This document shows, in pieces, positions 1,333 through 63,762 of a stretch of DNA of 64,000 bases. Position 1 is the stretch's first letter; each line of letters begins with the position of its first letter. Made by a program: the position numbers and the translations under genes. The stretch spans positions 37,893-101,892 of the IMG/VR virus record IMGVR_UViG_3300045988_165922; one strand, written 5' to 3'. The notes below the pieces were generated by a model. That model was not told the DNA's origin. It saw only the letters and a program-made list of their open reading frames with translations, and made no database searches. Source of the stretch: a virus.

Positions 1333-1355
1333 TGTGTGGACGTTTCTAGTATAAC
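1333..1355 (-). promoter_or_regulatory. conserved promoter/leader motif copy (degenerate: tgtgtggacgtttctagtataac)
   Basis: matches the window-wide consensus; sits about 25 bp upstream of the exonuclease gene start. Confidence 0.5.
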
Positions 1356-1358
1356 GCC

Positions 1359-1628
1359 TTATCTGGTAATAGCCTTGACTCGTCCGTCCAGAACCGTTCT
1401 TACGACATCCTCGAAGTCGGTGTTGTCGGGCAATAGGCGGGAGTCTTGAAGGATTCCGATAATCTTCAACAGTTCCGTATGCCCGTGCGGAGTGCGCTTA
1501 TAGTCGCGGGTCGCACCCGCCTTGTATGCGCGACGCAACTGTAACGCCAACTGTTCCCGTGTGAGCGTGATGCAGTCGCCTTCCTCGATGGGATACCGTT
1601 CTTCCAGTTCTTCGTTGAGAATGCTCAT
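1359..1628 (-). CDS. hypothetical protein, 89 aa
   Basis: internal ATG (MSILNEELEE) with RBS GAAAGGAAAAAC; longer ORF-track start lacks an RBS. Confidence 0.5.
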   Translation of the reverse strand: MSILNEELEERYPIEEGDCITLTREQLALQLRRAYKAGATRDYKRTPHGHTELLKIIGILQDSRLLPDNTDFEDVVRTVLDGRVKAITR

Positions 1629-1653
1629 TTTTTTGTTTTTCCTTTCTGTTTTT

Positions 1654-2049
1654 TCAGACGTACATTCCCTCATGCCAGCCGTGTAGCAAACCCCATTCGG
1701 ATAGTTTCCGGAACCATTTCTCGCATTCGTCAGCCACCTTGTTGGGATAATCCAACGTCGGGTTCAAGTTGAGTAAATACTGGTAGTCGTAGGGTTGGCA
1801 GAAGTTCTCGTCCAACACGTCTATCTGCCAGTCGCTACCGTCCTTGGCAATCTCGACATTCAATGTCATGTCATGGTCGGGGGAGACTGAACGGCAGAGG
1901 TACCAATACCCCTCACGGTGGTCGGTGAATCCCAGTCGGCGCATGGTCGAATCTTCGGCGGGACTCATGCTAAGCGCCGCATTGTTCTGATGCTTCGTGT
2001 AGGTGATGCCTATGGTCGAGAATCGGGGCGTGTTCTGAGCGTCGGACAT
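1654..2049 (-). CDS. hypothetical protein, 131 aa
   Basis: ORF track; RBS TAGGAGAG 5 nt upstream of ATG. Confidence 0.55.
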   Translation of the reverse strand: MSDAQNTPRFSTIGITYTKHQNNAALSMSPAEDSTMRRLGFTDHREGYWYLCRSVSPDHDMTLNVEIAKDGSDWQIDVLDENFCQPYDYQYLLNLNPTLDYPNKVADECEKWFRKLSEWGLLHGWHEGMYV

Positions 2050-2057
2050 GTTCTCTC

Positions 2058-2429
2058 CTATTCTTCGCTTTTGCGCAGGTCGATTACCGGAATATGGGTA
2101 TCGGTGGAATAGTGGACGGAATAGGGGTCGATTGTCCTATGCCGCCAGCTGACGCCACCTTCCACTGGCCAAGCCAGCCAGCTTATGCCGTCCAAATAGT
2201 TCAGAATGCTGATGTGGGTAATCCAACGGCACCATCTTGTCGGGCATATCACGTCGAACATGGGTGTATTCTCGGTTCCCGGTCGGCAGGAATGCCGTTG
2301 CCAAGAGCGCAGGTATACGCGGTAGAGCGCATGGGAGTCGTCTGTTGGCAGTTCCTTGGTGTCGAATACTGCGCGAGTTGGGTGGTCATCGAAGAGGATT
2401 CGTTTGCCGAATTTAGTTGCTTGATTCAA
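2058..2429 (-). CDS. hypothetical protein, ~123 aa (TTG start)
   Basis: AAGGAG then 6 nt then TTG, immediately downstream of a motif copy; the ORF-track 5' extension would read through the motif. Confidence 0.45.
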   Translation of the reverse strand: MNQATKFGKRILFDDHPTRAVFDTKELPTDDSHALYRVYLRSWQRHSCRPGTENTPMFDVICPTRWCRWITHISILNYLDGISWLAWPVEGGVSWRHRTIDPYSVHYSTDTHIPVIDLRKSEE

Positions 2430-2457
2430 TGCGTTCTCCTTTTTGGTTGTCTTTGTT

Positions 2458-2482
2458 TTTGTTGTGAACAATCCCACTATAA
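2458..2482 (-). promoter_or_regulatory. conserved promoter/leader motif copy (ttgttgtgaacaatcccactataac)
   Basis: consensus match, oriented toward the 2058..2429 gene. Confidence 0.55.
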
Positions 2483-2514
2483 CACAAGGGGGTAGAAAAA
2501 CGCAACACGCAAAC

Positions 2515-2970
2515 CTAAGCCAGCGTCCCGTTAAAAAAGAACTCCCTCTTCCCAACCCGATACAAACCCACACGAGAGCCGGACAGACGAAAATCAAAAC
2601 GACGGAAGAAACCCTCATACATCGGCAACAGCTCTTCCGGCACTGTCACCAGAGGGAACCGTTCATCCAGCGATTTCAATGCATATTCGACCAGCGTGGA
2701 ACCAACCCCTCGACTCCGAAAACCCTCGTAGACATACAAAGTGCAAATCTTCCGTTCAGACGGATTTCTCTTGAGAACGCAAAACCCCGCCAACTCACCG
2801 TTTATGCGGGCTAAAAGAATCGCACGGCCTTTCCCCAATGAGGGGAGAACCGTGCGGTTGAACCAAATATCGAAGCCGGGATAATACGTTCGGATTGTCC
2901 CCGGAATGGGAATAGAAGCCGCAGTGCCAGCGTCCCGAACTACACTAATCCTCAACGAACTCGAACACAT
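2515..2970 (-). CDS. GNAT family N-acetyltransferase
   Basis: acetyl-CoA binding motif VYEGFRSRGVGSTLVEYAL (R-x-x-G-x-G), ~150 aa. Confidence 0.75.
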   Translation of the reverse strand: MCSSSLRISVVRDAGTAASIPIPGTIRTYYPGFDIWFNRTVLPSLGKGRAILLARINGELAGFCVLKRNPSERKICTLYVYEGFRSRGVGSTLVEYALKSLDERFPLVTVPEELLPMYEGFFRRFDFRLSGSRVGLYRVGKREFFFNGTLA

Positions 2971-3190
2971 GAAAATCCGTCACACGCTCGACGTTGACAT
3001 GACTCGTATCATCCGGCCAAATATATAAGACCGGCATGTAACCGGACAGTTCACGAACTGCGAGATTGCTGAAACCGTCCAAGTAGAGGGTTCCGGCCAT
3101 GGGTTTGCCGTTCCATTTGAATATCGCGGACTTGCCTTCGAATTCTTTCCAGTTGATTCCGTCTTGATAGGGAAGTTCTTTTAAGGCCAT
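2945..3190 (-). CDS. hypothetical protein, 81 aa
   Basis: ORF track; RBS AAAAGGAAAACCA before ATG; degenerate motif upstream. Confidence 0.5.
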   Translation of the reverse strand: MALKELPYQDGINWKEFEGKSAIFKWNGKPMAGTLYLDGFSNLAVRELSGYMPVLYIWPDDTSHVNVERVTDFHVFEFVED

Positions 3191-3206
3191 TGGTTTTCCT
3201 TTTTTG

Positions 3207-3230
3207 GTGTGGGCTATCTCACTCTAACAC
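3207..3230 (-). promoter_or_regulatory. degenerate promoter/leader motif copy (ggtgtgggctatctcactctaacac)
   Basis: partial consensus match (TGTTAGAGTGAGATAGCCCACACC in gene orientation). Confidence 0.4.
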
Positions 3231-3271
3231 AACAGGGGTAATGCAAAGAACGAAAAACCACCTTCCCACAC

Positions 3272-4098: not shown

Positions 4099-4353
4099 TC
4101 AGGCGAACACTTTCACGGACTGGAATTCTTCGCCCATTTCGTTGCCGGATTCGCATTGGTTGACAATAACCCATGGTTTGACGCTGGGGAAGTGGAGGCT
4201 ATCGATTCTCACATACATGTCGGGTTGTGCCGTGCGATATTCCAGTATGCCTTCGATGGTTTCGCCGGTTTTGGTGACGGCGATGCACTTGTGGCCTTCC
4301 AAGTTTTGGGGGAGGGTGTTGTGCCAGTTGATTTCTGTGGTGGTGTTGCTCAT
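4099..4353 (-). CDS. hypothetical protein, 84 aa
   Basis: start MSNTTT with RBS AAGGAGAAAA; motif promoter upstream. Confidence 0.5.
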   Translation of the reverse strand: MSNTTTEINWHNTLPQNLEGHKCIAVTKTGETIEGILEYRTAQPDMYVRIDSLHFPSVKPWVIVNQCESGNEMGEEFQSVKVFA

Positions 4354-4382
4354 TTTTCTCCTTGTAGGATGCAACTTCTTGC

Positions 4383-4404
4383 TGTGTGAACAATTCCAGT
4401 ATAT
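4383..4404 (-). promoter_or_regulatory. conserved promoter/leader motif copy (tgtgtgaacaattccagtatat)
   Basis: near-consensus copy; about 30 nt before the RBS of the 4099..4353 gene. Confidence 0.6.
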
Positions 4405-4471
4405 ATGATATTAGCGCAAAACACAATCCGATAGAACAATAAGGAAGCATAGAAACGGCAGTCTTCCAATC

Positions 4472-4856: not shown

Positions 4857-5273
4857 CTACAATTCTCTCATGGCCTTGTCTAAATCGGACACAATCGCGT
4901 CATACAGTCCGTCAACATCCAACGATTCCAGCTTATGTTCTTCCAGTTCGACGGGCGTGTATTCCCCGTCATCGAAAGTCCAGTGTGCGGACGGAACCGT
5001 GTATACTCCGCCACGCCAACGGTAGGAACGTCTGCCGTCTCGTTGCGAGTCGGCCACCAGATAGTACTCGACCTGCTTGCCCATGTAACGGTGTTGGAAT
5101 GCGACTTCGATTCCGTCTCCGAAGATGGCTCGGGTTGCGTGAGCGCCGGTCACGTAGGGGATTCTGACGAGTTTGTCGATGAGTTTCCGATAGGGTGTCT
5201 TCGCTGATTTTCGAGTACATTCTGATTGTCCTTTTTCGTGTAATTGGGGTTTGTGGTGATTGTTTTTCAGCAA
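4857..5273 (-). CDS. hypothetical protein, ~138 aa (start uncertain; TTG at 5273 or an internal ATG)
   Basis: ORF track; no clear RBS at either candidate start. Confidence 0.4.
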   Translation of the reverse strand: MLKNNHHKPQLHEKGQSECTRKSAKTPYRKLIDKLVRIPYVTGAHATRAIFGDGIEVAFQHRYMGKQVEYYLVADSQRDGRRSYRWRGGVYTVPSAHWTFDDGEYTPVELEEHKLESLDVDGLYDAIVSDLDKAMREL

Positions 5274-5527
5274 CAGTATTCGTTGACTGCGTTGACGAGT
5301 TCAGCCATGCTCATGCTGTATACGTCGCTGTGGCGGGCGTAGATGTCTTTTGCGAAGAGTCTGTTTTGCATGATGGTGCGGGCTTCGGGACTTTGAACGA
5401 GTTTCACGCTTTCGGGGAAGGTGCTTGAGAGGGCGTTGTCGTTGATTTGTTTGGCGTATTCGACTGCTTGTTTTTTGGGCATTTTCTTGACGTTGATTGC
5501 GCCGCCGATGTAGTGGATTGCGTACAT
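5267..5527 (-). CDS. hypothetical protein, 86 aa
   Basis: RBS AAAAGGAGCACATAAC-ATG; motif promoter upstream. Confidence 0.55.
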   Translation of the reverse strand: MYAIHYIGGAINVKKMPKKQAVEYAKQINDNALSSTFPESVKLVQSPEARTIMQNRLFAKDIYARHSDVYSMSMAELVNAVNEYCC

Positions 5528-5556
5528 GTTATGTGCTCCTTTTGCCTATCGCTCTT

Positions 5557-5579
5557 TGTGTGAACAATTCCACTATAGC
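5557..5579 (-). promoter_or_regulatory. conserved promoter/leader motif copy (tgtgtgaacaattccactatagc)
   Basis: near-consensus copy, oriented toward the 5267..5527 gene. Confidence 0.6.
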
Positions 5580-5659
5580 ACACTTGAGAAAAACCGCAAA
5601 ACCCCAAAAAACAAAAGCGGGACACCAAAACAGCATCCCGCCTTCCCCCCCATCAAACC

Positions 5660-6625
5660 TCAATCGGACAAACCGGCACGGGCACGCATCTTGCGTTTAA
5701 TCTCACTACCCTTGGCAAACAAGCGCTCCATACGGGCCACGGTCTGCAACGCCTTCTTATACTCCTCCAATCGAGAAGAGATTTGCCAATTACGAGGTTC
5801 CGCTAACGACTCCTCAATTAGAGAATCGGGAACATCCCACATAAAGGACATAATCCAACGGCGGTTTTCCCCGCCCATGCGACGCCACAAGCGCACGGCA
5901 CGCTTACCTTTGACCCATTCCGGATTATTGAACAAGACTTGGATGGCGGATTCGTCGGAAAGGGAGTCCAACAACGGGTCTATGTCCGTTTCCTCCGCCA
6001 ACGGTGCCGATAGGGCGCGGATGGTTTCGTCTTCGCTTTTCACCCAATGCTCGAAGCAGAGCCTATCGGCCAGCTTGTTTTCCACCATGTAGCGGATAAC
6101 GTCGTAATCCGTTTCCTCCCAGTACAGGCTTGCAACGGTATGCTTTGCGGCGAGCTTGCGTAGTTCGGGGTCTTTGTCCTTGGCGAGGCTGGTCGCGGTC
6201 TTATAGTTGAGTTTTCCCTTGTATTCCAAATATTCGGCCACCTTGCGGCGAACGTCACGACTCCGGTCTTTCAACACGGTTTCACGCAGTCCGTCGTATA
6301 TCTTTCCGTCCTCGATTTTCATGTTGTACTTCAACTTGCAGTTGATGTAATAGTGACGGAACGGTAAGGGGAGAGGGAATATTCTTCCACTCCGGTAGAT
6401 GTTCTTAATGCTTTCCAGCAGGTCGATTCCCTTGTTGGTAAGCTTCCAACGGTCGCGTTCCTTGGTCAGTTCGATTAGGTTGGCTTCCTTGAATTTGTCT
6501 AAGGACTTCTGGTCGATGTATGCGCTCAGTCGTTGCGAGTGGGTTTCGTTGTCGAAGTCCTCGAAGCAGTAAACGAGGTTGGCAGTCCACTTTTTGGTAA
6601 GACTGTTGATTGCGTCGTTGTCCAT
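5660..6625 (-). CDS. HEAT/ARM-like repeat protein with N-terminal wHTH-like region, paralog A
   Basis: repeated D-x-x-x-VRR/LRK-A helix-repeat signatures (DRSRDVRRKVAE, DKDPELRKLAAK); clear paralog of 7627..8544; start MDNDAINSL with RBS GAAGGAG; the track's 5' extension reads through the motif. Confidence 0.6.
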   Translation of the reverse strand: MDNDAINSLTKKWTANLVYCFEDFDNETHSQRLSAYIDQKSLDKFKEANLIELTKERDRWKLTNKGIDLLESIKNIYRSGRIFPLPLPFRHYYINCKLKYNMKIEDGKIYDGLRETVLKDRSRDVRRKVAEYLEYKGKLNYKTATSLAKDKDPELRKLAAKHTVASLYWEETDYDVIRYMVENKLADRLCFEHWVKSEDETIRALSAPLAEETDIDPLLDSLSDESAIQVLFNNPEWVKGKRAVRLWRRMGGENRRWIMSFMWDVPDSLIEESLAEPRNWQISSRLEEYKKALQTVARMERLFAKGSEIKRKMRARAGLSD

Positions 6626-6647
6626 GGTTTCTCCTTCTCGGCATATC

Positions 6648-6671
6648 TTGTGTGAACAATTCCAGTATAGC
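6648..6671 (-). promoter_or_regulatory. conserved promoter/leader motif copy (ttgtgtgaacaattccagtatagc)
   Basis: consensus copy about 20 nt before the RBS of HEAT paralog A. Confidence 0.6.
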
Positions 6672-6784
6672 CTAAGTTGAGATAAAACACAACACGCAAC
6701 CAAGCCAAAACGAAGACGCAATCCCCGCCCATATGAAAAAAGGAATACATCCACATGATTTTCCTGCGGGCGTATTCCCATGTT

Positions 6785-7093
6785 TTAGTTCAGAAGTCCG
6801 GAGCGATACAGAATCCTGCGGATATTGATGCTGTGGACGAAAGCGGTGTCAGGCTGTCCAACGAAGTCGGCAAGCTGCTCGTCGGAGCAAGTCTCGTCAA
6901 CGGCGGCATCCAAAACCACCTCGGTCGGAGAGTCGAACATCCTACAGCCGACGCCGTCATGCCCCTCGGTGTGCTCGAACAAGGCGAAGTAGGTCATGTT
7001 CTCGTCTGCAACACGCAACATGACATAGGAGGTATTGCCGTTGCGGAAGATGTTGTAGTCTGCTGCGCCGAATCGTGTGAAATACTCGTTCAT
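6785..7093 (-). CDS. hypothetical protein, 102 aa
   Basis: start MNEYFTRF with RBS GAGAAAGAG; motif upstream. Confidence 0.5.
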   Translation of the reverse strand: MNEYFTRFGAADYNIFRNGNTSYVMLRVADENMTYFALFEHTEGHDGVGCRMFDSPTEVVLDAAVDETCSDEQLADFVGQPDTAFVHSINIRRILYRSGLLN

Positions 7094-7114
7094 TGTGGCT
7101 CTTTCTCTCATATT

Positions 7115-7137
7115 TGTGTGAACGATTCCAGTATATC
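7115..7137 (-). promoter_or_regulatory. conserved promoter/leader motif copy (tgtgtgaacgattccagtatatc)
   Basis: consensus copy, oriented toward the 6785..7093 gene. Confidence 0.6.
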
Positions 7138-7271
7138 ATATTTGAGGGAAAGAGCGAAAACACAAAACACAAAAAGCCGCGCAAACGCAAAAGCATCCAC
7201 GCGACTCGATATTTTTTTCACCACTATACGGAGGGTTGTGCGGTTCCCTCCGCCGCAGTGGGTGCTGCCGG

Positions 7272-7626: not shown

Positions 7627-8544
7627 CTAAATCTCGTGCTCGGCACGCTCCCAAATCTTCCGGCGAATCTCACTGTCCTCGGAGAACATCGTACCCAACT
7701 CCAACACTTGACGGACGGCTTCTCGGTATTTCTCCAAACGGTCATGCAAGGCCATGTACGCGTCGCTTTTGAACGCCTGATTGATGAACGAGTCCGGCAT
7801 GTCGCGCATGACCTTGACCAGCCTGTAACGTCCCACCTCGTCCGCGTTCTCCCAAGCGTTCATGACTCGTTCACGCGTGGCCCACTGCGGCTTGCAGGCC
7901 AGTACATGCGCCACATCCTGTGAGTCGAGGCGGGCCAACACTTCATCCACCTTGCCGTCTTCGGTCAGAAGAGCCGCCTGAACGCGAATCTGACTGTTGG
8001 GATTGTCCAGCCAATGTTCGACGCATTCCTTATCGAAGTTATGGTTATAGATAAGGGTTTTGACCACGCGCTCGTCCGACTCCTCGAAGAAGAGGTGAGG
8101 GTCTGCGTTCTTTGCCGCCATGAGTCGAATCTGATAATCCTCGTCGTAGGCCAAACCGTTCGACGTTTCCTTGTCGAGCTTGCTGAACTTGTTGAGCATT
8201 GTGGCCGCTTTCTTGCGAATCTCGGCGCTCCTGTCATGTAGGGCAACTTTGGATAGTTCCTTGACGGGTAGTTTCTTTTCGTCGTATACGCGCCAGTCGA
8301 AGTAGTAGTTACGGACTTTCAGGGGTAGTTCGGAGAGTTTGCCGGAGTTGAAATGCTGTCTAATGTTGGCGAGTTCGTCTTCGCCTGTTTGGGTGAGAGT
8401 CCAGTCGCCCGTCTCGTTTTCCTGAATGAGTCCGGCTTTGGCGAGTTTGGTGATGTCGCGGTCGGGGAATACTCGGCGTTCGGGTTCGCGCTCGAATCGC
8501 ATGAATTCGTAGACTGCGGTTTCGTTCCAGTTGATGTCGCTCAT
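7627..8544 (-). CDS. HEAT/ARM-like repeat protein with N-terminal wHTH-like region, paralog B
   Basis: aligns along its length with 5660..6625 (DRSAEIRKKAA, MRDMPDSFINQAF vs MWDVPDSLIEESL); start MSDINWNE with RBS GAGGAGC. Confidence 0.6.
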   Translation of the reverse strand: MSDINWNETAVYEFMRFEREPERRVFPDRDITKLAKAGLIQENETGDWTLTQTGEDELANIRQHFNSGKLSELPLKVRNYYFDWRVYDEKKLPVKELSKVALHDRSAEIRKKAATMLNKFSKLDKETSNGLAYDEDYQIRLMAAKNADPHLFFEESDERVVKTLIYNHNFDKECVEHWLDNPNSQIRVQAALLTEDGKVDEVLARLDSQDVAHVLACKPQWATRERVMNAWENADEVGRYRLVKVMRDMPDSFINQAFKSDAYMALHDRLEKYREAVRQVLELGTMFSEDSEIRRKIWERAEHEI

Positions 8545-8570
8545 TTTTTGCTCCTCGGCTTCCATATTTT

Positions 8571-8592
8571 TATGTGAACAATTCCAGTATAC
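8571..8592 (-). promoter_or_regulatory. conserved promoter/leader motif copy (tatgtgaacaattccagtatac)
   Basis: consensus copy upstream of HEAT paralog B. Confidence 0.6.
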
Positions 8593-8667
8593 AATTTGCT
8601 TGGACAAAACACGCTACAAAACAAAAAGCGGGAACTACAGCAACAAACCATATCCCCGCAAACCCAA

Positions 8668-9092: not shown

Positions 9093-9470
9093 TCAGCGAG
9101 TGTATCCGATTTTCCTAAGCACATGGTCTTCGGGGCTGGAGAGACGCTTGATGACCTCTTCCGGCGTAAGGCTGATTCTCTTCGTGTGGAGTAGGGGTTG
9201 GAACGAGCAGGTGCGGAGGAACTTCGTGACCACGCCGTCTCTGCTCATGCGGGAAGGAATCTTCTGGTTTCGATACTGGCGGTAGGTGAAGCGGAGCCAA
9301 CGAATCGCCTGTTTCGAGTCGATGGTCTTCACATGGGGATTATCGGCGTAGGCTTTCACCCAGTTATTGCGTTCGGTGACGCTATGGAAAATCTGGATTA
9401 GGGGAATGTTGTTGTCAGGGTCGAGCTTCTGGTTGGGATGGTTGACGATGGCGGCGTAGTAGGTGTTCAT
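9093..9470 (-). CDS. hypothetical protein, 125 aa
   Basis: start MNTYYAAI with RBS AAGGAG; the track's 5' extension reads through the motif. Confidence 0.5.
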   Translation of the reverse strand: MNTYYAAIVNHPNQKLDPDNNIPLIQIFHSVTERNNWVKAYADNPHVKTIDSKQAIRWLRFTYRQYRNQKIPSRMSRDGVVTKFLRTCSFQPLLHTKRISLTPEEVIKRLSSPEDHVLRKIGYTR

Positions 9471-9497
9471 GGGTCGCTCCTTTTGTAGACCAAGTTT

Positions 9498-9520
9498 TTG
9501 TGTGAACAATCCCAGTATAT
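9498..9520 (-). promoter_or_regulatory. conserved promoter/leader motif copy (ttgtgtgaacaatcccagtatat)
   Basis: consensus copy upstream of the 9093..9470 gene. Confidence 0.6.
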
Positions 9521-9570
9521 ATTCAAGAATAGCAATCACGCAAGTCGGCACGTCAAAACAAACTACCCAA

Positions 9571-11117: not shown

Positions 11118-11153
11118 ACAAGGCTTCCTTTCTTTTTTGTCGGATATGAGAGA

Positions 11154-11185
11154 GGGGAGAAGCGGTCTGGATGACGCTTCTCCCC
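11154..11185 (-). terminator. hairpin terminator candidate (ggggagaagcg...cgcttctcccc)
   Basis: 10-bp GC-rich stem just downstream of the 11203 gene stop; no clean U-run. Confidence 0.4.
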
Positions 11186-11202
11186 GAGGCTTTTAGCATA
11201 GG

Positions 11203-11499: not shown

Positions 11500-11536
11500 G
11501 TTTTCTCCTTTTGTTGTTGTGAGGCCGAACCCTTTT

Positions 11537-11559
11537 TGTGTGGACATGACCACTATAAC
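11537..11559 (-). promoter_or_regulatory. degenerate promoter/leader motif copy (tgtgtggacatgaccactataac)
   Basis: consensus-like copy upstream of the 11203..11499 gene. Confidence 0.5.
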
Positions 11560-11610
11560 ACATGGTCTGAAATATCACAATACGAAAAAACAAAAAATGC
11601 CGACCAGCGC

Positions 11611-12045: not shown

Positions 12046-12106
12046 CTGCTGTGTCTGCTGGTAGGCGTGTTCTATATACAGGTTGTTCTCCTTTTTAAAT
12101 GGTTTT

Positions 12107-12129
12107 TGTGTGGACGATTCCAGTGTGCC
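12107..12129 (-). promoter_or_regulatory. degenerate promoter/leader motif copy (tgtgtggacgattccagtgtgcc)
   Basis: consensus-like copy upstream of the 11611..12045 gene. Confidence 0.5.
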
Positions 12130-12206
12130 ACAGAGGGATAATGCAAAAATCCCTCACTGCACAGCCGCAAAAAGCTAAACCCGTCGAATCCGACGGGTTT
12201 AGAATC

Positions 12207-13277: not shown

Positions 13278-13309
13278 GGTCTAACTCCTATTCAATGGCT
13301 TTCTGTTTT

Positions 13310-13332
13310 TGTGTGAACGATTCCAGTATAGC
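13310..13332 (-). promoter_or_regulatory. conserved promoter/leader motif copy (tgtgtgaacgattccagtatagc)
   Basis: consensus copy upstream of the 12888..13277 gene. Confidence 0.6.
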
Positions 13333-13409
13333 GCACTTTGTAAAACAGGCAACACGGACACGCCAAAAAACAAAAAGCCCCGCCAAAACGACGGGGCCAC
13401 AAACCAAAA

Positions 13410-13610: not shown

Positions 13611-13648
13611 TTTTTCTCCTTTTGGTGATGGGTTTTACGAACCCTTGT

Positions 13649-13671
13649 TTGTGTGAACAATTCCAGTATAC
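13649..13671 (-). promoter_or_regulatory. conserved promoter/leader motif copy (ttgtgtgaacaattccagtatac)
   Basis: consensus copy upstream of the 13410..13610 gene. Confidence 0.6.
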
Positions 13672-13744
13672 ATCATGTTGGGGCACGACACGCCAAACAA
13701 AAAGCGCCCCACCCACCCAAGGGAGAGGCGCTAAAACCCGACGG

Positions 13745-14629: not shown

Positions 14630-14660
14630 TTTTTGTTCCTCCTTGTTGGAATCTATTTTT

Positions 14661-14683
14661 TGTGTGAACAATCCCAGTATACC
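14661..14683 (-). promoter_or_regulatory. conserved promoter/leader motif copy (tgtgtgaacaatcccagtatacc)
   Basis: consensus copy upstream of the 14135..14629 gene. Confidence 0.6.
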
Positions 14684-14743
14684 ATGTTTGTTGTGAAAAA
14701 CAAAAACAGCCCACTCCCCAAAGCAAGGAAGCGGGCTGAAAAG

Positions 14744-15568: not shown

Positions 15569-15596
15569 TTTTTGCTCCTTGGTTTTTCGACTTTTC

Positions 15597-15620
15597 CTGT
15601 GTGAACAATTCCAGTATACC
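15597..15620 (-). promoter_or_regulatory. conserved promoter/leader motif copy (ctgtgtgaacaattccagtatacc)
   Basis: consensus copy; first motif of the minus-strand island. Confidence 0.6.
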
Positions 15621-15699
15621 TCAAGTATGAAAACAACACAAAAAAGAGGAACGGAAACCGAAACGGGAACCGTCCCTCAATGCCTTTTAGAAAAGTGAC

Positions 15700-20582: not shown

Positions 20583-20625
20583 TGTCACCATAGTTTGGAT
20601 ATGGCCGATTTTGTTCAATTATATT

Positions 20626-32660: not shown

Positions 32661-32691
32661 TGTTGTTGGCAGTGACTTTTCCTTTCTTTTT

Positions 32692-32715
32692 TTGTGGGCA
32701 TACCCACTATGACAG
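32692..32715 (-). promoter_or_regulatory. degenerate promoter/leader motif copy (ttgtgggcatacccactatgacag)
   Basis: consensus-like copy upstream of the flotillin gene. Confidence 0.45.
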
Positions 32716-32723
32716 AACTTGTT

Positions 32724-34064
32724 TCAGAACTCGTTTTCGAAACCTGCGGCCATGTCCGCGAATTTGGAGCATTCGCCCATGAACGCGAGATTGAACGTTT
32801 CGGTAGGCCCGTTACGGTGCTTGGCGAGAATCACGTCGGCTTCGCCCGGACGTTCCTCACGGTCGTAGTATTCGGGACGATGCACGAGGAACACCATGTC
32901 GGCGTCCTGTTCGATGGAACCGGACTCTCTCAGGTCGGACAGTTCCGGCTTCTTGTCGGCACGCTGTTCCGCATTACGGTTCAACTGGGAGAGCACGACC
33001 ACGGGGCATTGCAGTTCCTTGGCGAGCATTTTGCATTGGCGGGAGAAGTTCGACACTTCCTGCTGACGGTTCTCGACGGTTTTACCGGAGGACATGAGTT
33101 GCAGGTAGTCGATGACGATAAGCTTCAACCCGTTGACCTTGCGGCTGAGAGCACGGCATTTCGCACGGATGGTGCTCATGTTGATGATGGCGGAATCATC
33201 AACCCACAATGGTGCCTTCTCGACCTGATGGCAGAGCGCGTTGAGTTTGTTCCAATCATTCGAGTTCAGATTCTCGGGATGTTGGAACGATGCGAGACGG
33301 ATGCCTGTTTCGGCTGCGAACATGCGTTGCATGAGTTCGTGACCGCCCATTTCCAGACTGAAAATCACAGTCGGCAGACCCTTGTGCAGTGCGGCGTTAC
33401 GCGCGAAATCCATGCCGAGAGTACTCTTGCCCATGCCCGGACGGCCCGCGACTATGACCATTTGTCCGGCTTGCAATCCGTGCGTCAACGCGTCGATGTC
33501 ACGGAAGCCGGTGGGTGTTCCGAACTCGTTCGGATTCTGTGACATTTCATCCAACTGTTGGAGTATTTCGTCGGACAGGCGGTATGCGGTCTTCAACTCG
33601 TCGTCTTCGGAACGGCTTGAATCCTCCAACGAGAACGCGGCCTCCAACGATTTGCTGAGCACATCTTCGGCTGACGCGTCGGATACGTTGCTCATCTGTT
33701 GCAACTGCTGTCCGACCATGTTGATGTGGCGGAGGATGGCCGCGTCACGAATCTGCTTGATGAAATAGTCACTGTTGTTCGACGTGGGCGCGGAGCCGAC
33801 AAGCTGGGCGATGTAGTCGATGCCGCCGACCTGTTCCAACTGTCCGTTGTCCATCATGTGCGAGGACAGCATTTGCGCGTCCACACGGTTATTGTCTGCG
33901 GCCAGTTCCTTTATATTATAGAAGATGGTCTGGTTGGTCGGCTGGTAGAAGTCCTCTTCGGAAAGTTGGCTGATGACCTTGTCCAACGTTTCCGCGTCTT
34001 GAAGCATGGCCCCCAACAATACTTGCTCGGCCATGTCCTTGTGGATTGGTGTGGGGACGCTCAC
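32724..34064 (-). CDS. dnaB: replicative DNA helicase DnaB
   Basis: N-terminal DnaB domain (LLGAMLQD), Walker A GRPGMGKST, RecA-like C-terminal domain; 446 aa. Confidence 0.85.
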   Translation of the reverse strand: MSVPTPIHKDMAEQVLLGAMLQDAETLDKVISQLSEEDFYQPTNQTIFYNIKELAADNNRVDAQMLSSHMMDNGQLEQVGGIDYIAQLVGSAPTSNNSDYFIKQIRDAAILRHINMVGQQLQQMSNVSDASAEDVLSKSLEAAFSLEDSSRSEDDELKTAYRLSDEILQQLDEMSQNPNEFGTPTGFRDIDALTHGLQAGQMVIVAGRPGMGKSTLGMDFARNAALHKGLPTVIFSLEMGGHELMQRMFAAETGIRLASFQHPENLNSNDWNKLNALCHQVEKAPLWVDDSAIINMSTIRAKCRALSRKVNGLKLIVIDYLQLMSSGKTVENRQQEVSNFSRQCKMLAKELQCPVVVLSQLNRNAEQRADKKPELSDLRESGSIEQDADMVFLVHRPEYYDREERPGEADVILAKHRNGPTETFNLAFMGECSKFADMAAGFENEF

Positions 34065-36769: not shown

Positions 36770-36772
36770 GGT

Positions 36773-36997: not shown

Positions 36998-37032
36998 TGT
37001 TTCTGTGGTCTTTTCCGTTCCTGTGGAATGTT

Positions 37033-37058
37033 TTGTGTGGGCGAGGTCAGCTTAACAC
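37033..37058 (-). promoter_or_regulatory. degenerate promoter/leader motif copy (ttgtgtgggcgaggtcagcttaacac)
   Basis: resembles the 3207..3230 variant; oriented toward the 36997 operon. Confidence 0.35.
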
Positions 37059-37124
37059 ACTAGGTGGGGGTATGCAAGCGTTCGGGGATTCGCGGTCGGA
37101 TGATTTGCGTTCGACCATACCCTT

Positions 37125-37148
37125 TGTTATACTGGAATCGTCCACAAA
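37125..37148 (+). promoter_or_regulatory. conserved promoter/leader motif copy, plus orientation (tgttatactggaatcgtccacaaa)
   Basis: consensus copy about 50 nt before the 37198 gene; divergent from 37033..37058. Confidence 0.55.
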
Positions 37149-37197
37149 AAAGGGAGTCGCACACCTCCCCAACACGCCAGAACAAAAAGAAGAAACC

Positions 37198-56448: not shown

Positions 56449-56582
56449 AAAGTTGGAACTTTCGACACGGAAAGTTGGAACTTCTGACACGCTAAGTGGG
56501 CACTTCTGACACGGAAGTTGGAACTTTCGACACGGAAAGTTGGAACTTCTGACACGGAAAGTTGGAACTTCTGACACGCTTT
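56449..56582. repeat. iteron array: ~6 direct repeats of a 21-22 bp unit (aaagttggaacttctgacacgg)
   Basis: tandem direct repeats visible in the sequence; one degenerate unit (ctaagtgggcacttctgacacgg). Confidence 0.8.
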
Positions 56583-56619: not shown

Positions 56620-56760
56620 CCTGCAAAAGGTATACAAAAGATTACAAAATATTAATAACCCTTGTATTCCCTTCTTTTTTCAAAAAACAAGTTTTTTTAA
56701 AAAGAAGCAAAAAATCAAAAACAGAATAAACCCATTTTTTAGATTTCATGTTTTGAAGAG
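56620..56760. other. AT-rich DNA-unwinding-element-like region of the putative oriV
   Basis: ~75% A+T with A/T runs, immediately beside the iterons. Confidence 0.5.
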
Positions 56761-58458: not shown

Positions 58459-59484
58459 ATGGCTAAGAAGAAAGGCGGCATGTCCGCCGGTTCCCTGCTT
58501 GGCGGCATTCTGGTCGTGTTGACGGCCATGGTGCTCATCGTGAATCTTGGATTGTGGACTCCCATGTCGAAGATTTTCGGATTGCCGGAAATCAACAGTC
58601 TGTCCCAGTTGATGCCGGGTGAGGATTCCAAGGTGAAGCCGGATGTGAAATTGGGGTTGAAGGAGCCTCCCTTGAAGCCGTCCGGCTCCAATTCGCAAAC
58701 CAATACTCCAGAAGCCACAGAAACGCCCTCAGAAACGACGCAGACACAAAACGGGGACAATTCCTCAAGTCAAGCACAAAAAGCCTCTACAAGCGTTCCT
58801 GAAGGTGCTTTAAGCCCCATCACCACGAAACAGGCGCTTGACAAACTCGCTGACATCGAAACCGCAACCCCGCACACCAAAGGATACAACCGCAAAACCG
58901 ACTTCGGCACATGGCAGAACAGCAACCAGCTCTGCGGTTACGGCACCACCCGCGACTACATCCTCAAACGCGACATGACCGACGTGACCATGGACAAGAA
59001 CTGCAAGGTGCTCACCGGAACCCTCCAAGACCCATACACCGGCAAGACCATCAAATTCCAACGCGACACCTACGAGACCGTCAACGGCAAACAGAAGAAA
59101 ACAGGCGGGGACAGCATGGCCGTCCAAATCGACCATGTGGTGGCGGTCAACGACGCTTGGGCCAGCGGACTGTGGAAGGACTCGCGCAAGGGCGACCGCA
59201 TCACCTACGCGAACGACCCGGAAGTGCTCGTCGCGTCCGAAGGAGAAGCGAACAACATCAAACAGCAGGGCGTGAACCTCGTGAAGGACGAGGCGTTGAA
59301 CGGTTCCTCGACCAAGTGGAAGGACGCAACGCCCAGCATTTGGCTCCCGTCCAACAAGACGTACCAATGCTCGTATATGGCTAAACGCGTGTACATCAAA
59401 GACAAGTACAAGCTGTCCATGAGCAGTTGGGAAAAAGCCGAAACGAAGTCGTTCCTCACGCAATGCGTGGCCGACGGCAACTGA
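58459..59484 (+). CDS. membrane-anchored secreted protein with a His-Me-finger/HNH-like motif; putative extracellular nuclease, 341 aa
   Basis: N-terminal TM; Ser/Thr-rich linker; DHVVAVNDAW motif; function unverified. Confidence 0.4.
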   Translation: MAKKKGGMSAGSLLGGILVVLTAMVLIVNLGLWTPMSKIFGLPEINSLSQLMPGEDSKVKPDVKLGLKEPPLKPSGSNSQTNTPEATETPSETTQTQNGDNSSSQAQKASTSVPEGALSPITTKQALDKLADIETATPHTKGYNRKTDFGTWQNSNQLCGYGTTRDYILKRDMTDVTMDKNCKVLTGTLQDPYTGKTIKFQRDTYETVNGKQKKTGGDSMAVQIDHVVAVNDAWASGLWKDSRKGDRITYANDPEVLVASEGEANNIKQQGVNLVKDEALNGSSTKWKDATPSIWLPSNKTYQCSYMAKRVYIKDKYKLSMSSWEKAETKSFLTQCVADGN

Positions 59485-59749
59485 TTTTGTTGACCCAGCC
59501 CCTTGTTAGAAAAACTTTTCCTGTTTTTCCGGTTTTGCACCAGATGAATGTTCGAAGTCGTTTACTGTAACAGTTGAGACCGGGTTTTCGTGGTATATCT
59601 TCCACCATCTGGTTTCTTCCCCGGTCTCTGTGGAAAGCTCCTCTCGGGGAGTGTGTTTCGGGTTCCGCCACCCGTGTGTGGATTCTTTTTTGGGTGGCGG
59701 AACCATTTTCTTTCCTAATCGGCATTGTGGCGATTCGAGAAGAAAATGA

Positions 59750-59774
59750 TGTTATACTAGAAGTGTTCACACAA
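59750..59774 (+). promoter_or_regulatory. conserved promoter/leader motif copy (tgttatactagaagtgttcacacaa)
   Basis: consensus copy ~30 nt before the RBS of the 59805 gene. Confidence 0.55.
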
Positions 59775-59804
59775 TAATAGAAAAAGCCAGCCAAGGAGAA
59801 AAAC

Positions 59805-60176
59805 ATGAGCAACTACTTCAACAGCATCGAACACCAAATCAACCTCATGCTCGACAGGGAACAAGACCTCCAAGACGAACAGGAACAGCGCCTACGGGAT
59901 ATTCACGACGGCATCGGAGACTACGTGCTGTTGCCCGAAGGCGACCCGTGGAACATCGATGACTACGAGCAAGACCCACAGCCCACCAACATCAACAACA
60001 CTTGCAGTCACGGACTCTATGTTGACGAAGGTGTGAAATCTGGAACCATGTATCATCTCAACCCTGACCTCGGACTGTGGGCGGCTTGTGACGACTACGA
60101 GGACATAGAAAAAATGGTCAGGGAAGGCAAGCCGCTCACCCAGCCCATCGACGATTACGATTCGAAGCTCGCCTGA
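59805..60176 (+). CDS. hypothetical acidic protein, 123 aa
   Basis: ORF track; RBS AAGGAG. Confidence 0.5.
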   Translation: MSNYFNSIEHQINLMLDREQDLQDEQEQRLRDIHDGIGDYVLLPEGDPWNIDDYEQDPQPTNINNTCSHGLYVDEGVKSGTMYHLNPDLGLWAACDDYEDIEKMVREGKPLTQPIDDYDSKLA

Positions 60177-60218
60177 GAAAGAATTTTTCCTGAAACCTTC
60201 CTTGTTTGCGAAAAACTA

Positions 60219-60243
60219 CGTTATAGTGGAACCAGTCACAAAC
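60219..60243 (+). promoter_or_regulatory. conserved promoter/leader motif copy (cgttatagtggaaccagtcacaaac)
   Basis: consensus-like copy upstream of the 60259 gene. Confidence 0.5.
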
Positions 60244-60258
60244 AAGGAAGGTTCCTTT

Positions 60259-60591
60259 TTGAACACCGAAACGGACATCACGGACAGTCAAACCCAAGAA
60301 CGTTCCCGTCCACGCAAAGACCTTGACACCGTAGGAGGGTTCCTTGACTCCTGCAAGGACGAGACGCCAATCCTGCTTTACTTCAACACAAACGACGGAA
60401 TACAAAGAATCCCCCACATCCTAGGAGACCCGCCCACCGTCGGACAACTCCGACTCAACAAATATCTGCGGCCACTGAAAATCCAACGAAGAGTCCGCTA
60501 CCAGATTGCCGGAACCAGCGACACCGGCTGGGTCATCCGGGTCGATGAACGATTCAAGAAAAAGAAATACATCAAAGCGTCGAAAGCCTGA
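60259..60591 (+). CDS. hypothetical protein, ~110 aa (TTG start)
   Basis: AAGGAAGG then TTG immediately downstream of the motif. Confidence 0.45.
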   Translation: MNTETDITDSQTQERSRPRKDLDTVGGFLDSCKDETPILLYFNTNDGIQRIPHILGDPPTVGQLRLNKYLRPLKIQRRVRYQIAGTSDTGWVIRVDERFKKKKYIKASKA

Positions 60592-61659: not shown

Positions 61660-61696
61660 GCTTAGAAAAAACACAAAACCTCTGAAAGGAGCAGCA

Positions 61697-62140
61697 TTGG
61701 ACGAACAATCCTCCACCCAACGTTTCCATATCCTCATGGCCGGTATCAGCGAAGGTGAGACCAGAATCCTCTACAACATCGAAAAAGGAAGGTTGACCGC
61801 CGACATCCTCAAAAGCAACATCGGCAGACAACTGCTGGATGCCGGACTCATCCGACGTAACGGACAATCAGCCCCATCCCTCACCAAGGATGGCATGCGC
61901 CTCGTATCCACGCTCGCCCAAGGCGAGGCAGACCGTCCAATCCGACTATACGAGCGCAACAGCGAAACACTGCTCCGCCAAGCCGGACAGGGAACGGCCA
62001 ACGCATACAAGGCCGGTTTCGAAAACGCCGCCATCGAACTGCTGAACGACAAGCTGGTTCACCTCGACATCGCAACAGGCGCTCTGACGCCGCTCCCTGC
62101 GGGACGGGAACTATTGGAACGACTGGAGCAGACGGCTTGA
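61697..62140 (+). CDS. hypothetical protein, 147 aa
   Basis: TTG start with RBS GAAAGGAGC. Confidence 0.5.
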   Translation: MDEQSSTQRFHILMAGISEGETRILYNIEKGRLTADILKSNIGRQLLDAGLIRRNGQSAPSLTKDGMRLVSTLAQGEADRPIRLYERNSETLLRQAGQGTANAYKAGFENAAIELLNDKLVHLDIATGALTPLPAGRELLERLEQTA

Positions 62141-63093
62141 AGCCTTGGTTCCAAGACGACACGCTGACGCTCTATCTGGGCGACGCATCGTCCGCGCTTT
62201 CCGATTTGCCCGACGGAAGCGTCGATTGCATCGTCACCAGTCCACCGTACTACGGGTTGCGCCAATACACGGATTCCGAACTGGAAATCGGACGCGAACC
62301 CACACCCGGCGGCTATGTGGAAGACCTCAGCAAAGTATTCCGCGAATGCAGACGAATCCTAGCCGATGACGGCACGCTCTGGCTGAACTTGGGAGACACG
62401 TACTCCACGCCGAACCTATGGGACGGCGGCGACGGGTCGGAGAACAGCATCGGATTGCACGGACATGCGCAGAAGCCGAACGGCAGGAAACGTCCAGACC
62501 GTCCGGCGAAGAACCTGCTCGGCATCCCGTGGAGAGTGGCGTTCGCATTGCAGGATGACGGTTGGATATTGCGTTCGGATATCATTTGGGGGAAAACCAA
62601 TCCCATGCCGGAAAGCGTGAAAGACCGTCCAAGCAAAAGCTACGAGCATATTTTCCTATTCTCCAAAACCGAAAAATACTATTACGACTACCAGTCCGTA
62701 AGACAACGGCAGTCGGAGAAAACCATCGAGGATTTAGCCCACCGGCATACGTTCGGCAACAAAAGCGCATATGGTGGTGTCCGCGAGGATTTGGGGAGAG
62801 ACCGTAGGGAATACGTGGCATCGGACGGCAGACGAAACCTACGCGACGTGTGGATGCTGCCGACCCGCCCGTATGCGGGAGCGCATTTTGCGGCTTTCCC
62901 GGTGGATATTCCCCTCACATGCATTCAGGCCGGTTGCAAGCCGGGCGGCGTGACGCTCGACCCGTTCAACGGTTCCGGCACCACCGGGTTGGCGGCTGCG
63001 ATGCTGGGGCGTAGGTATATCGGCGTCGATTTGAGTCAACAATATTTGGAATTGAGTCTGCGAGACCGTCTGAATCAGCCCGCGTTCGTATAG
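62137..63093 (+). CDS. beta-class DNA methyltransferase (N4-cytosine or N6-adenine); orphan
   Basis: motif IV SPPY near the N-terminus and motif I DPFNGSGTTG near the C-terminus; no restriction endonuclease gene adjacent. Confidence 0.8.
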   Translation: MKPWFQDDTLTLYLGDASSALSDLPDGSVDCIVTSPPYYGLRQYTDSELEIGREPTPGGYVEDLSKVFRECRRILADDGTLWLNLGDTYSTPNLWDGGDGSENSIGLHGHAQKPNGRKRPDRPAKNLLGIPWRVAFALQDDGWILRSDIIWGKTNPMPESVKDRPSKSYEHIFLFSKTEKYYYDYQSVRQRQSEKTIEDLAHRHTFGNKSAYGGVREDLGRDRREYVASDGRRNLRDVWMLPTRPYAGAHFAAFPVDIPLTCIQAGCKPGGVTLDPFNGSGTTGLAAAMLGRRYIGVDLSQQYLELSLRDRLNQPAFV

Positions 63094-63097
63094 GAGA

Positions 63098-63310
63098 TTG
63101 GAAAAAATGCTGTCGTTATTATCGCAACAGAATGTGCTTATCGCATTGGCTGTGGGAGCTATCATATTGGCGCTCATGTTCCTCATCCCCGCCGTCGAGG
63201 AACTGGTCGGCACGTATACTCCGTTGGGAGAATTCTGCGAACGACCGAACATGAGATGGGCTGTGGTCATCCTGACCATCGTAGCGGTTCTCACGGTAGT
63301 GGTCATCTGA
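63098..63310 (+). CDS. small 2-TM membrane protein, 70 aa
   Basis: RBS AGGAGATTGGAAAAA. Confidence 0.45.
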   Translation: MEKMLSLLSQQNVLIALAVGAIILALMFLIPAVEELVGTYTPLGEFCERPNMRWAVVILTIVAVLTVVVI

Positions 63311-63322
63311 CTTTTCCTTGAC

Positions 63323-63352
63323 GGGGACGGCTTGATGCCGTCCCTTTTTTGT
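63323..63352 (+). terminator. rho-independent terminator (ggggacggc ttgat gccgtccc + TTTTTTG)
   Basis: 8-bp GC stem plus T-run directly after the 63310 stop. Confidence 0.7.
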
Positions 63353-63423
63353 TTCCCGCATCAAGTATGGGACAGTGTTCCAGCCGACTAATCTAGGAAA
63401 GGAAAGACTCGAAAGGTGGAAAC

Positions 63424-63708
63424 GTGAAAAGCTTCCTAAAGAACCTATTGGCTTTGACCGGACTGGCGTCCATCATCACCATGCTCGGCTCCCTCGCATA
63501 TGTGGATAAGAAACTACATGATGTGAGCAACGGATACAAGTACGGCCCCGCACGGCATCTGGAGTATTTGAGCGCGCTGTTGCACTCCTTCAACCGTTCT
63601 ATAGATGTCATTGCCGCCGACACGCATCGGAAGGTGTGCGACGAGGAGAATCGGAAGTATGACCGTTTGGAGGATGAGCGGGAGAGGGCTTGGAGCGCGG
63701 CTCGCTGA
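63424..63708 (+). CDS. small secreted or membrane-anchored protein, 94 aa
   Basis: GTG start with RBS GAAAGGTGGAAAC; N-terminal hydrophobic segment. Confidence 0.45.
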   Translation: MKSFLKNLLALTGLASIITMLGSLAYVDKKLHDVSNGYKYGPARHLEYLSALLHSFNRSIDVIAADTHRKVCDEENRKYDRLEDERERAWSAAR

Positions 63709-63736
63709 GTATTTGGTTTTCTTTGCGTCTGTCTAT

Positions 63737-63762
63737 GTTATAGTGGAACTGTTCACATAAAA
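63737..63762 (+). promoter_or_regulatory. conserved promoter/leader motif copy (tgttatagtggaactgttcacataaa)
   Basis: consensus copy ~20 nt before the RBS of the 63781 gene. Confidence 0.55.

Follow-up and report, generated by a model that had tools for sequence, protein, structure and literature searches.

The closest described counterpart of the promoter family treated here is found on the Bifidobacterium breve megaplasmid pMP7017, whose promoters were mapped by RNA-seq (Dineen et al. 2024, Microb Biotechnol 17:e14405; PMC10832533). Nineteen pMP7017 promoters have a 34-bp motif over their mapped -10, six at highly expressed genes and 13 elsewhere, and 56 genes (24% of the coding capacity) are predicted to be driven by this motif. 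The six motif promoters were among the most highly transcribed on the plasmid in steady-state log-phase cells. The motif is present in pMP7017 homologues and not on bifidobacterial chromosomes, and it was read as 'likely a transcription factor binding site'. Megaplasmids of the pMP7017 type were found in about a tenth of the gut samples screened, mostly infant and maternal (all PMC10832533). Here, we describe this motif in a 64,000-nt stretch filed as viral (IMG/VR record IMGVR_UViG_3300045988_165922, positions 37,893 to 101,892), called the window in the following, with all coordinates counted from its first base unless assigned to pMP7017 or another sequence. The motif is published already; new are a variant consensus in a divergent lineage and a third variant in Bifidobacterium callitrichidarum.

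Sites repeated across a mobile element are also known from other systems. Among regulons of the KorA type (KorA and KorB of IncP-1; ArdK, StbA and KorA of IncW R388), the IncP-1 KorA operators cover the -10 of about seven promoters. The stoperators of mycobacteriophage L5 and the Cluster A phages are asymmetric 13-bp repressor sites, with about 30 per genome, oriented with transcription. Promoter families with conserved initial transcribed regions occur in the SPO1 host-takeover module and among the early promoters of T5 and phiC31.

The motif family in the window was confirmed as real and highly significant. Position 0 of the motif was set to the first T of TATACT, and consensus matches were compared with 100 dinucleotide-preserving shuffles. 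A 26-mer consensus had 10 matches with ≤3 mismatches in the window and none in the 100 shuffles, and the 23-mer core TATACTGGAATTGTTCACACAAA had 17 window matches with ≤6 mismatches. A weight matrix was built from 256 unique family instances (window and related contigs) and applied with a cut-off of ≥10 bits. It found 20 sites in the window compared with a shuffle mean of 0.01 (top shuffle score: 10.9), so the scoring against shuffled sequence that a preliminary description of the window had proposed gave a strong enrichment. That description had counted at least 22 copies. The family stood, while the total came to 21, namely the 20 sites and one borderline copy. All 13 copies it called near-consensus were among the 20 sites, as were seven of its eight degenerate copies (1333, 2458, 3207, 11537, 12107, 32692 and 60219); the eighth, at 37033, is the borderline copy. 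A 'possible' copy at 31135 had to be dropped: the weight matrix gave -17.5 bits, and it is not a copy because only TATATT and GGAAT are in common with the motif.

As described before, the copies are intergenic and co-directional with the next gene (21 of 21), and none precedes the pilus/diversity-generating retroelement, ATPase or par/rep genes of the window. The 5' extensions in the open reading frame track that run through the motif were also found again (5660-6781, 7627-8607, 9093-9578, 11114-11698 and 14135-14671). For 18 copies, a script called a start codon with a Shine-Dalgarno-like sequence 36-70 nt past the first T of TATACT. An ATG about 57 nt downstream of copy 37054 (-) was read by eye, and for copies 12127 and 32711, the script called no start codon. 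The copies are listed below. Each module spans the -35 to the conserved box, and the letters given are the -10, the 6-nt discriminator and the box.

1331..1376 (-): TATACT AGAAAC GTCCACACATT; degenerate; 20.0 bits; start codon 46 nt after the -10; first gene 723-1307, an RNase_T-type 3'-5' exonuclease (Pfam RNase_T)
2459..2504 (-): TATAGT GGGATT GTTCACAACAA; 36.3 bits; first gene 2058-2429
3204..3249 (-): TAGAGT GAGATA GCCCACACCAA; degenerate; 11.3 bits, exceeding every shuffle; first gene 2945-3190, then the GNAT gene 2515-2970
4381..4426 (-): TATACT GGAATT GTTCACACAGC; 32.9 bits; first gene 4099-4353
5555..5600 (-): TATAGT GGAATT GTTCACACAAA; 45.8 bits; first gene 5267-5527; terminator hairpin 5645-5613 just upstream
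6647..6692 (-): TATACT GGAATT GTTCACACAAG; 41.7 bits; first gene 5660-6625 (321 aa)
7113..7158 (-): TATACT GGAATC GTTCACACAAA; 45.4 bits; first gene 6785-7093; upstream terminator 7207-7174
8569..8614 (-): TATACT GGAATT GTTCACATAAA; 42.7 bits; first gene 7627-8544
9497..9542 (-): TATACT GGGATT GTTCACACAAA; 40.1 bits; first gene 9093-9470
11535..11580 (-): TATAGT GGTCAT GTCCACACAAA; degenerate discriminator; 25.3 bits; first gene 11203-11499
12105..12150 (-): CACACT GGAATC GTCCACACAAA; damaged -10; 37.0 bits; upstream terminator 12202-12175
13308..13353 (-): TATACT GGAATC GTTCACACAAA; 46.0 bits; operon of 12888-13277, 12690-12869 (HTH_17) and 12527-12685 (ribbon-helix-helix-like by eye)
13648..13693 (-): TATACT GGAATT GTTCACACAAA; perfect core; 46.4 bits; first gene 13410-13610, a small, hydrophobic, likely membrane protein
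14659..14704 (-): TATACT GGGATT GTTCACACAAA; 46.1 bits; first gene 14135-14629; upstream terminator 14738-14707
15596..15641 (-): TATACT GGAATT GTTCACACAGG; 41.2 bits; first gene 14744-15568 (DUF2786 and DUF7168)
32689..32734 (-): CATAGT GGGTAT GCCCACAAAAA; degenerate; 12.6 bits, exceeding every shuffle; heads 31275-32660, flotillin-like (Pfam Band_7)
37032..37077 (-): TAAGCT GACCTC GCCCACACAAA; borderline divergent partner; 6.2 bits; precedes 36773-36997
37105..37150 (+): TATACT GGAATC GTCCACAAAAA; 38.2 bits; operon from 37198-37374, on the backbone, adjoining replication and DnaB genes
59730..59775 (+): TATACT AGAAGT GTTCACACAAT; 34.6 bits; first gene 59805-60176, a very acidic 123-aa protein
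60199..60244 (+): TATAGT GGAACC AGTCACAAACA; degenerate; 14.9 bits, exceeding every shuffle; first gene 60259-60591
63716..63761 (+): TATAGT GGAACT GTTCACATAAA; 39.0 bits; gene from 63781 leaves the window

The score of 37032..37077 corresponds to about the 95th percentile of the shuffle maximum; this copy is supported by a back-to-back pair at the syntenic place in pMP7017 (56070-/56120+). Downstream of 12105..12150, a Shine-Dalgarno sequence is followed by CTG/ATA, and no ATG, GTG or TTG stands at the expected place (12045-12130). This copy may be a decaying cassette or may use a non-canonical start.

The promoter architecture was evaluated on the 256 unique copies. TTG at -23 to -21 (T in 197 copies at -23, T in 181 at -22 and G in 125 at -21) leaves a 17-bp spacer, and the extended -10 shows T at -5 in 190 copies, T at -3 in 164 and G at -2 in 189. 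Within TATACT, A2 and T6 are invariant, and the fifth base is C or G, with the consensus A in only 5 of the 256 copies. TRTGnTATACT fits the extended -10 type of Gram-positive housekeeping sigma factors, with the -35 (TTGnnn) at 17 bp. The first half of the motif had been read as an extended -10 element, and this reading holds: the TTG at 17 bp and the TRTG agree with it, and the RNA-seq of pMP7017 places TATACT as the -10 (PMC10832533). The dedicated sigma factor suggested along with it does not find the same support. None is annotated on pMP7017, and an architecture that matches the host's housekeeping sigma factor makes one unnecessary. It is well supported by these features that each copy can serve as a complete, self-contained promoter for the host housekeeping RNA polymerase, and copies on a relative were shown to be active by others. 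On standard spacing, the transcript is predicted to start at the G of GTYCACA, six bases past the -10.

Conservation extends well past the -10. The block from 0 to +22 carries 1-2 bits per position, and the information drops below 0.5 bit beyond about -24 to +25. A scan with TAnAnT-N6-G[TC][CT]CACA as its sole anchor returned 239 unique copies of the window type, in which positions outside the anchor were conserved as well (G6 and G7: 1.7 bits; A9: 1.3 bits; A20: 1.6 bits). The box GTYCACAYAA occurred 319 times in 0.99 Mb of family sequence compared with 4-12 times in shuffles. TAnnnT was located exactly 6 nt upstream of the box in 193 of 207 unique contexts (93%), and most of the others had a near -10 at the same distance. 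As the flanks are randomised and the core is kept, the copies must be old, with about 25 consecutive bases held by selection. The second half is conserved beyond the needs of a promoter and the copies form an element-specific regulon, as was proposed for the window before and as the published interpretation has it. By inspection of the consensus sequences, the conserved block has no dyad symmetry, and only TGT-N2-ACA is common to all lineages. The pMP7017 type has a 5+5 palindrome, TATGT-CC-ACATA, which is absent from the window type.

The window is a plasmid and represents a divergent lineage of the pMP7017 megaplasmid family with its own motif consensus. Its closest annotated relatives are pMP7017 and B. 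longum megaplasmids. The region 31-60 kb is collinear with pMP7017 35-60 kb at 30-68% amino-acid identity (about 50%; tblastn), and both backbones have the same synteny and carry RepA_C, ParA, DnaB, a secretion-system ATPase and sortase-dependent pili. This identity is below the 70% homologue threshold of PMC10832533. The cargo mostly differs, most of the small-gene island at 1-16 kb has no counterpart in pMP7017 and the G+C content is 53.1% in the window and 57.4% in pMP7017. Encoded in the window are a sortase, an SpaA-type pilin, a 2066-aa RCC1-repeat surface protein, a reverse transcriptase, DnaB, two ParA-like ATPases, a DNA methylase and a GmrSD-like nuclease. The RepA_C-family gene 55400-56269 (-) is accompanied by six 22-bp iterons (AAAGTTGGAACTTCTGACACGG, 56449-56578) and an AT-rich stretch at ~56620-56760. 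It corresponds to 'RepA' of pMP7017, which is dispensable for replication (PMC8313286). A RepB homologue was not seen in the window, and no origin of transfer (oriT), relaxase, tRNAs or phage structural proteins were found in it. Near matches were absent from phage and plasmid collections, with no close PLSDB record. A phage origin was rejected on the missing structural proteins and on the motif matches in the phage collection, which were at chance level; other matches there reflected merely the common TGTTATACT of a B. asteroides phage promoter.

In IMG/VR, at least 36 contigs, the longest of 217 kb, contain the strict motif, in more than 108 stretches altogether, and many of the fetched stretches (L001-L108) align to the window at 75-99.8% nucleotide identity. 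One example of a motif-bearing contig is IMGVR_UViG_3300029789_000319 (165 kb). Most likely, these 'viral' contigs are megaplasmids misfiled as viruses. In 185,579 GTDB species-representative genomes, the strict motif had no match. A relaxed pattern gave 20 stretches in the same genomes, of which 16 were single chance-level matches in unrelated organisms. The other four (L119, L120, L123 and L126) lie on three draft contigs (c33, c3 and c12) of the marmoset isolate B. callitrichidarum TRI 5, the sole genome with several matches. These contigs carry backbone homologues at 40-58% identity, and several of their promoters have an upstream GGCGTGTC in place of the TTG -35. B. callitrichidarum TRI 5 holds either a megaplasmid of this family that is apparently undescribed or a copy that is integrated. 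The expected absence of the motif from host-type genomes was borne out by these counts, with multiple matches only on contigs with plasmid backbone genes.

The complete pMP7017 circle has about 27 credible copies between 28 kb and 186 kb on both strands. They drive CRISPR-Cas (clustered regularly interspaced short palindromic repeats), SSB, methylases, a sortase, WhiB and many unknown genes. The preliminary description had considered an early, leading-region or anti-defence programme. The dispersal of the pMP7017 copies on both strands, the variety of their genes and the high steady-state expression speak against it. The pMP7017 motif shares with that of the window the TGnTATACT -10, the box at a 6-nt distance, the position within about 60 bp of start codons and the absence from chromosomes. 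The orthologues preceded by the motif in both plasmids are the exonuclease, the DUF2786 gene, 59805-60176, 60259-60591 and the divergent pair by the DnaB cluster. The pMP7017 homologue of 59805-60176 is likewise first after a motif copy (35196-), and that of 60259-60591 comes after the copy 36118-. The leader past the box differs: its length is variable in the window, whereas in pMP7017 conservation continues through the ribosome-binding site.

The consensus is GGAATTGTTCACACAAA in the window lineage, GAATATGTCCACATAAAA in pMP7017 and the B. longum plasmid, which carries the same variant, and GAnnAyGTCCACACAAA in B. callitrichidarum. The window consensus, TGnTATACTGGAATTGTTCACACAAA, agrees with the published AWAYATGYTATACTGAATATGTCCACATAAAAWA in the core TGnTATACTG-N5-GTCCACAYAAA. 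Common to the three lineages is TATACTG-N5-GTYCACAYAAA, and the middle as well as positions 14 and 19 vary by lineage. Shared ends with a variable middle in three lineages fit a two-part asymmetric site. The comparison of the three lineages narrows the functional core to these bases at a fixed distance. Moreover, the regulon predates and reaches beyond the published B. longum/B. breve group and was kept across backbones that are about half identical. The motif marks a plasmid-wide expression circuit of gut megaplasmids and is not a new kind of system.

At about an even chance, we infer that the extra conserved bases form one asymmetric operator of ~23 bp, bound by a plasmid-encoded factor. Host polymerase would read the weak -35 (TTGnnn), the 17-bp spacer, the TRTG/extended -10 and TATACT, and with a start at the predicted G, GTYCACAYAAA would be the first 11 transcribed bases. 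The copies would head about 20 short transcription units, many with their own terminator, and others would head backbone operons. The operator would extend from -12 to +11 around this start and comprise the C of TATACT, the following G and the box. A plasmid-encoded DNA-binding factor occupying it would damp all motif promoters together.

An operator is favoured because conservation includes untranscribed bases besides the transcribed ones, because the element is absent from chromosomes that are served by the same polymerase and because the conserved parts are bipartite, with the middle variable in one lineage. It is also favoured by the repB promoter of pMP7017, which is repressed in trans and has a motif copy over it. 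This promoter was 1.6-fold lower with pMP7017 present, and RepB does not bind it (PMC8313286). The motif copy 120545(+) apparently lies back-to-back over the -10 (TATAAT, other strand) and -35 of the repB promoter (pMP7017 120543-120571; L110 ~40209-40237).

Several points weigh against an operator. The -10 assigned here to repB matches the primer-extension start in the literature only within about 10 nt, the 1.6-fold effect is small and the extent of the cloned fragment is uncertain. No candidate regulator protein was found. Searching solved structures with the sequences of four small, conserved backbone proteins yielded nothing usable. The site has neither dyad nor direct-repeat symmetry, which is unusual for the common dimeric repressors. 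The six highly transcribed motif promoters mean that any repression would be weak. Furthermore, an operator does not require the strictly fixed distance between -10 and box, which suits a function at the transcript start, either intrinsic to the polymerase or at the RNA 5' end, at least as well.

The parallels introduced above are partial. As in KorA-type regulons, a plasmid-specific element sits at many promoters over the -10 and start and joins backbone and accessory operons. The KorA-type operators are short palindromes with known dimeric repressors and tight repression, whereas the present site is asymmetric and ~23 bp long and several of its promoters are highly active. With the stoperators, the motif has in common an actinobacterial mobile element, an asymmetric site, tens of copies, a fixed orientation and short intergenic gaps. 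Stoperators, however, lie mostly inside transcription units and block elongation, while 93% of the boxes here are fused to a -10. The phage early-promoter families resemble the motif in their small-gene arrays, each with a strong host-polymerase promoter and terminator, and in a similarity that reaches into the start region. Here, the carrier is a plasmid, conservation is much tighter, a specific 11-bp box is present and temporal expression is unsupported.

The fixed distance would equally suit a motif that has no dedicated regulator and is a portable, optimised cassette for expression. Its -10, G-rich discriminator and initially transcribed bases would then act on the polymerase itself via open-complex stability and promoter escape, and the cassette would have spread by duplication and recombination and been kept for strong expression of newly acquired genes. 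The housekeeping-sigma architecture fits this, as do the six copies among the most highly transcribed pMP7017 genes, the pMP7017 conservation up to the ribosome-binding site (TAATCGAAAGAGGAAA) and the motif before non-homologous cargo genes in different lineages. But effects on the polymerase do not need near-invariance over some 20 consecutive positions, and the -10 avoids the consensus A at the fifth position. The fully randomised flanks speak for old copies with a core under strong sequence-specific selection, and host chromosomes, whose strong promoters share the polymerase, lack the motif. We consider such a cassette unlikely, though still a serious candidate.

A 5'-terminal tag on the RNA would require exactly the spacing that is seen. 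In this case, every mRNA of the regulon would begin with GUYCACAYAAA, which a plasmid or host factor would read for stability or translation, or which would enhance translation as an unstructured, CA/A-rich sequence. All boxes lie on the sense strand. Rich in A and C, poor in T and unstructured, the leaders are only 24-58 nt long, with folding energies of -1.7 to -9.0 kcal/mol (mean z: +0.13 compared with shuffles). They had no Rfam match at the gathering threshold, and a cis-regulatory leader RNA (riboswitch, attenuator or thermometer) was rejected for lack of such a match or of structure. The same results leave a tag without a recognisable RNA family. Moreover, a tag leaves the untranscribed C of TATACT, G6/G7 and the window-type discriminator GGAAT unexplained, although they are conserved, and the distance from box to ribosome-binding site varies. 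We know of no 5'-tag system of this kind in bacteria, and the probability we assign to it is small.

The box could also be a DnaA box (TTGTYCACA), with host DnaA as the trans-factor across transcript starts. GTYCACA corresponds to positions 3-9 of the known boxes (TTATNCACA / TTGTCCACA), and the window 9-mer fits their consensus fully. Positions 10-18 of the window type (TTGTTCACA) fit TT[ATG]T[N]CACA, a consensus generalised from seven box types of the B. longum origin, which include TTATCCACA, TTGTCCACA and TTATTCACA (PMC2430713). Nine of the 11 strict 9-mer matches in the window are motif copies, the sole variable box position (T/C at 14) is the N of the consensus and one B. callitrichidarum copy is a perfect TTGTCCACA. 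A rough estimate puts the chance of a conserved core matching this particular consensus at 0.001-0.005, uncorrected for the other motifs compared, and as several consensus sequences were compared, the match is partly post hoc. Against DnaA, conservation within the block is lowest at box positions 1-2 (0.7-0.9 bit), where pMP7017 and B. callitrichidarum have AT or AC. At these positions, nearly all pMP7017 copies and all window copies except the nine deviate from the strict box. DnaA leaves the tail YAAA, the C in TATACT and the G that follows the -10 without explanation, and the boxes are single and at transcript starts instead of in origin clusters, with conserved bases outside the 9-mer. Because of the poor conservation of positions 1-2 across lineages, DnaA was rated as having a slim chance. 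If it were true, Bifidobacterium megaplasmids would tie about a quarter of their genes, via 20-30 single boxes, to host DnaA and replication status.

Recognition of the whole block by a plasmid- or phage-encoded RNA polymerase or alternative sigma factor, in the manner of the T7-type 23-bp promoters, is very improbable. The length and near-invariance of the block resemble promoters of single-subunit polymerases, and related contigs are filed as viral in IMG/VR. However, the TTG -35 at 17 bp and the TRTG extended -10 are clear, the annotation of the complete pMP7017 has neither such a polymerase nor such a sigma factor, none was found in the window and the pMP7017 promoter logos fit the host vegetative consensus (PMC10832533). 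A fragment of a small mobile repeat (like miniature inverted-repeat transposable elements or repetitive extragenic palindromic sequences) or a chance repeat would account for the many dispersed copies and can practically be dismissed, as zero copies are expected by chance, every copy faces a gene start, only ~30 bp are conserved with neither extended homology nor an inverted partner and orthologous genes keep the motif across lineages at ~50% protein identity. The mobile element that the preliminary description had named as a possible refutation is excluded by this orientation and by the flank analysis.

Several candidate factors were rejected. RepA was discarded because a weight matrix of the iterons does not single out motif sites: the best motif site had rank 21 with 7.1 bits compared with 12.4 bits for unrelated sites. 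By eye, the iteron TGGAACTTCTGACAC agrees with the motif in 10 of 14 bases in the window and in 7 of 13 in pMP7017. Targeting by CRISPR was rejected as well, since all 15 spacers of the pMP7017 type I-E array are unlike the motif by eye. In the region shown, no cas3 is annotated for this system, and a motif copy follows right after the array. By inspection, none of the LexA, omega-heptad, sigma-54, extracytoplasmic function (ECF) sigma and MtrA consensus sequences fits, and neither do dyad or direct repeats. The window type does not keep the second -10 that can be read inside the pMP7017 box (CATAAAAT).

A pair of an XRE-type repressor and an ImmA/IrrE protease was found in pMP7017 (24932-26028), in L044 (6608-7455 and 7456-7800) and also in L003, L040 and L072, so that both lineages keep it, the four L contigs being of the window type; L097 matched with ImmA only and L101 with the repressor only. 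This pair was rejected because it has intergenic repeats of its own (ATACGAAnCGCTT) that are unrelated to the box. Upstream of the pair are two ATACGAA(A)CGCTT repeats. Beside it, a 523-aa gene is preceded by two box copies in tandem (GTCCACACAACATAAG twice) that follow an atypical -10.

A strong hairpin with a T-run ends 25-71 nt upstream of the motif in 11 of 18 copies. With these terminators, the island at 1-16 kb reads as a series of promoter-gene-terminator cassettes. Among its small proteins, Pfam gave only RNase_T, GNAT, HTH_17 and DUF2786/DUF7168; hits to Serglycin were artefacts of Gly-Ser linkers in the query. By eye, the products of 5660-6625 and 7627-8544 are similar to each other, as are those of 12888-13277 and 13745-14122, with functions unassigned. 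Three of these four genes have their own motif promoter, and the promoter at 14681 has 13745-14122 as its second gene.

Near the other end of the window (58459-60176), a nuclease gene of the GmrSD_C/DUF1524 type is followed by the motif-driven gene of the acidic 123-aa protein. The pairing of nuclease and acidic protein was also seen in pMP7017 (36335-37315 and 34788-35150). The acidic protein might be a DNA mimic or an anti-restriction protein.

The remaining observations concern genes outside the motif-driven units. The diversity-generating retroelement covers 19006-22275. Its reverse transcriptase gene (19006-20235, -) adjoins a pair of 168-nt repeats (20416-20583 and 21214-21381) with 85% identity, one of which forms the 3' end of the DUF6273 gene 21214-22275. 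The pair looks as would be expected of template and variable repeats. The gene of the RCC1-repeat/SdrD-B surface protein (22158-28358; 2066 aa) contains a perfect 150-bp tandem duplication (24619-24918) within a longer run of diverged repeats of 141-156 bp. Short, A-rich tandem repeats with periods of 9-19 were found at 42298-42683. They are located upstream of the ParA/CobQ-like gene 42863-44077, which heads the secretion-system cluster, and could be a partition or regulatory site.

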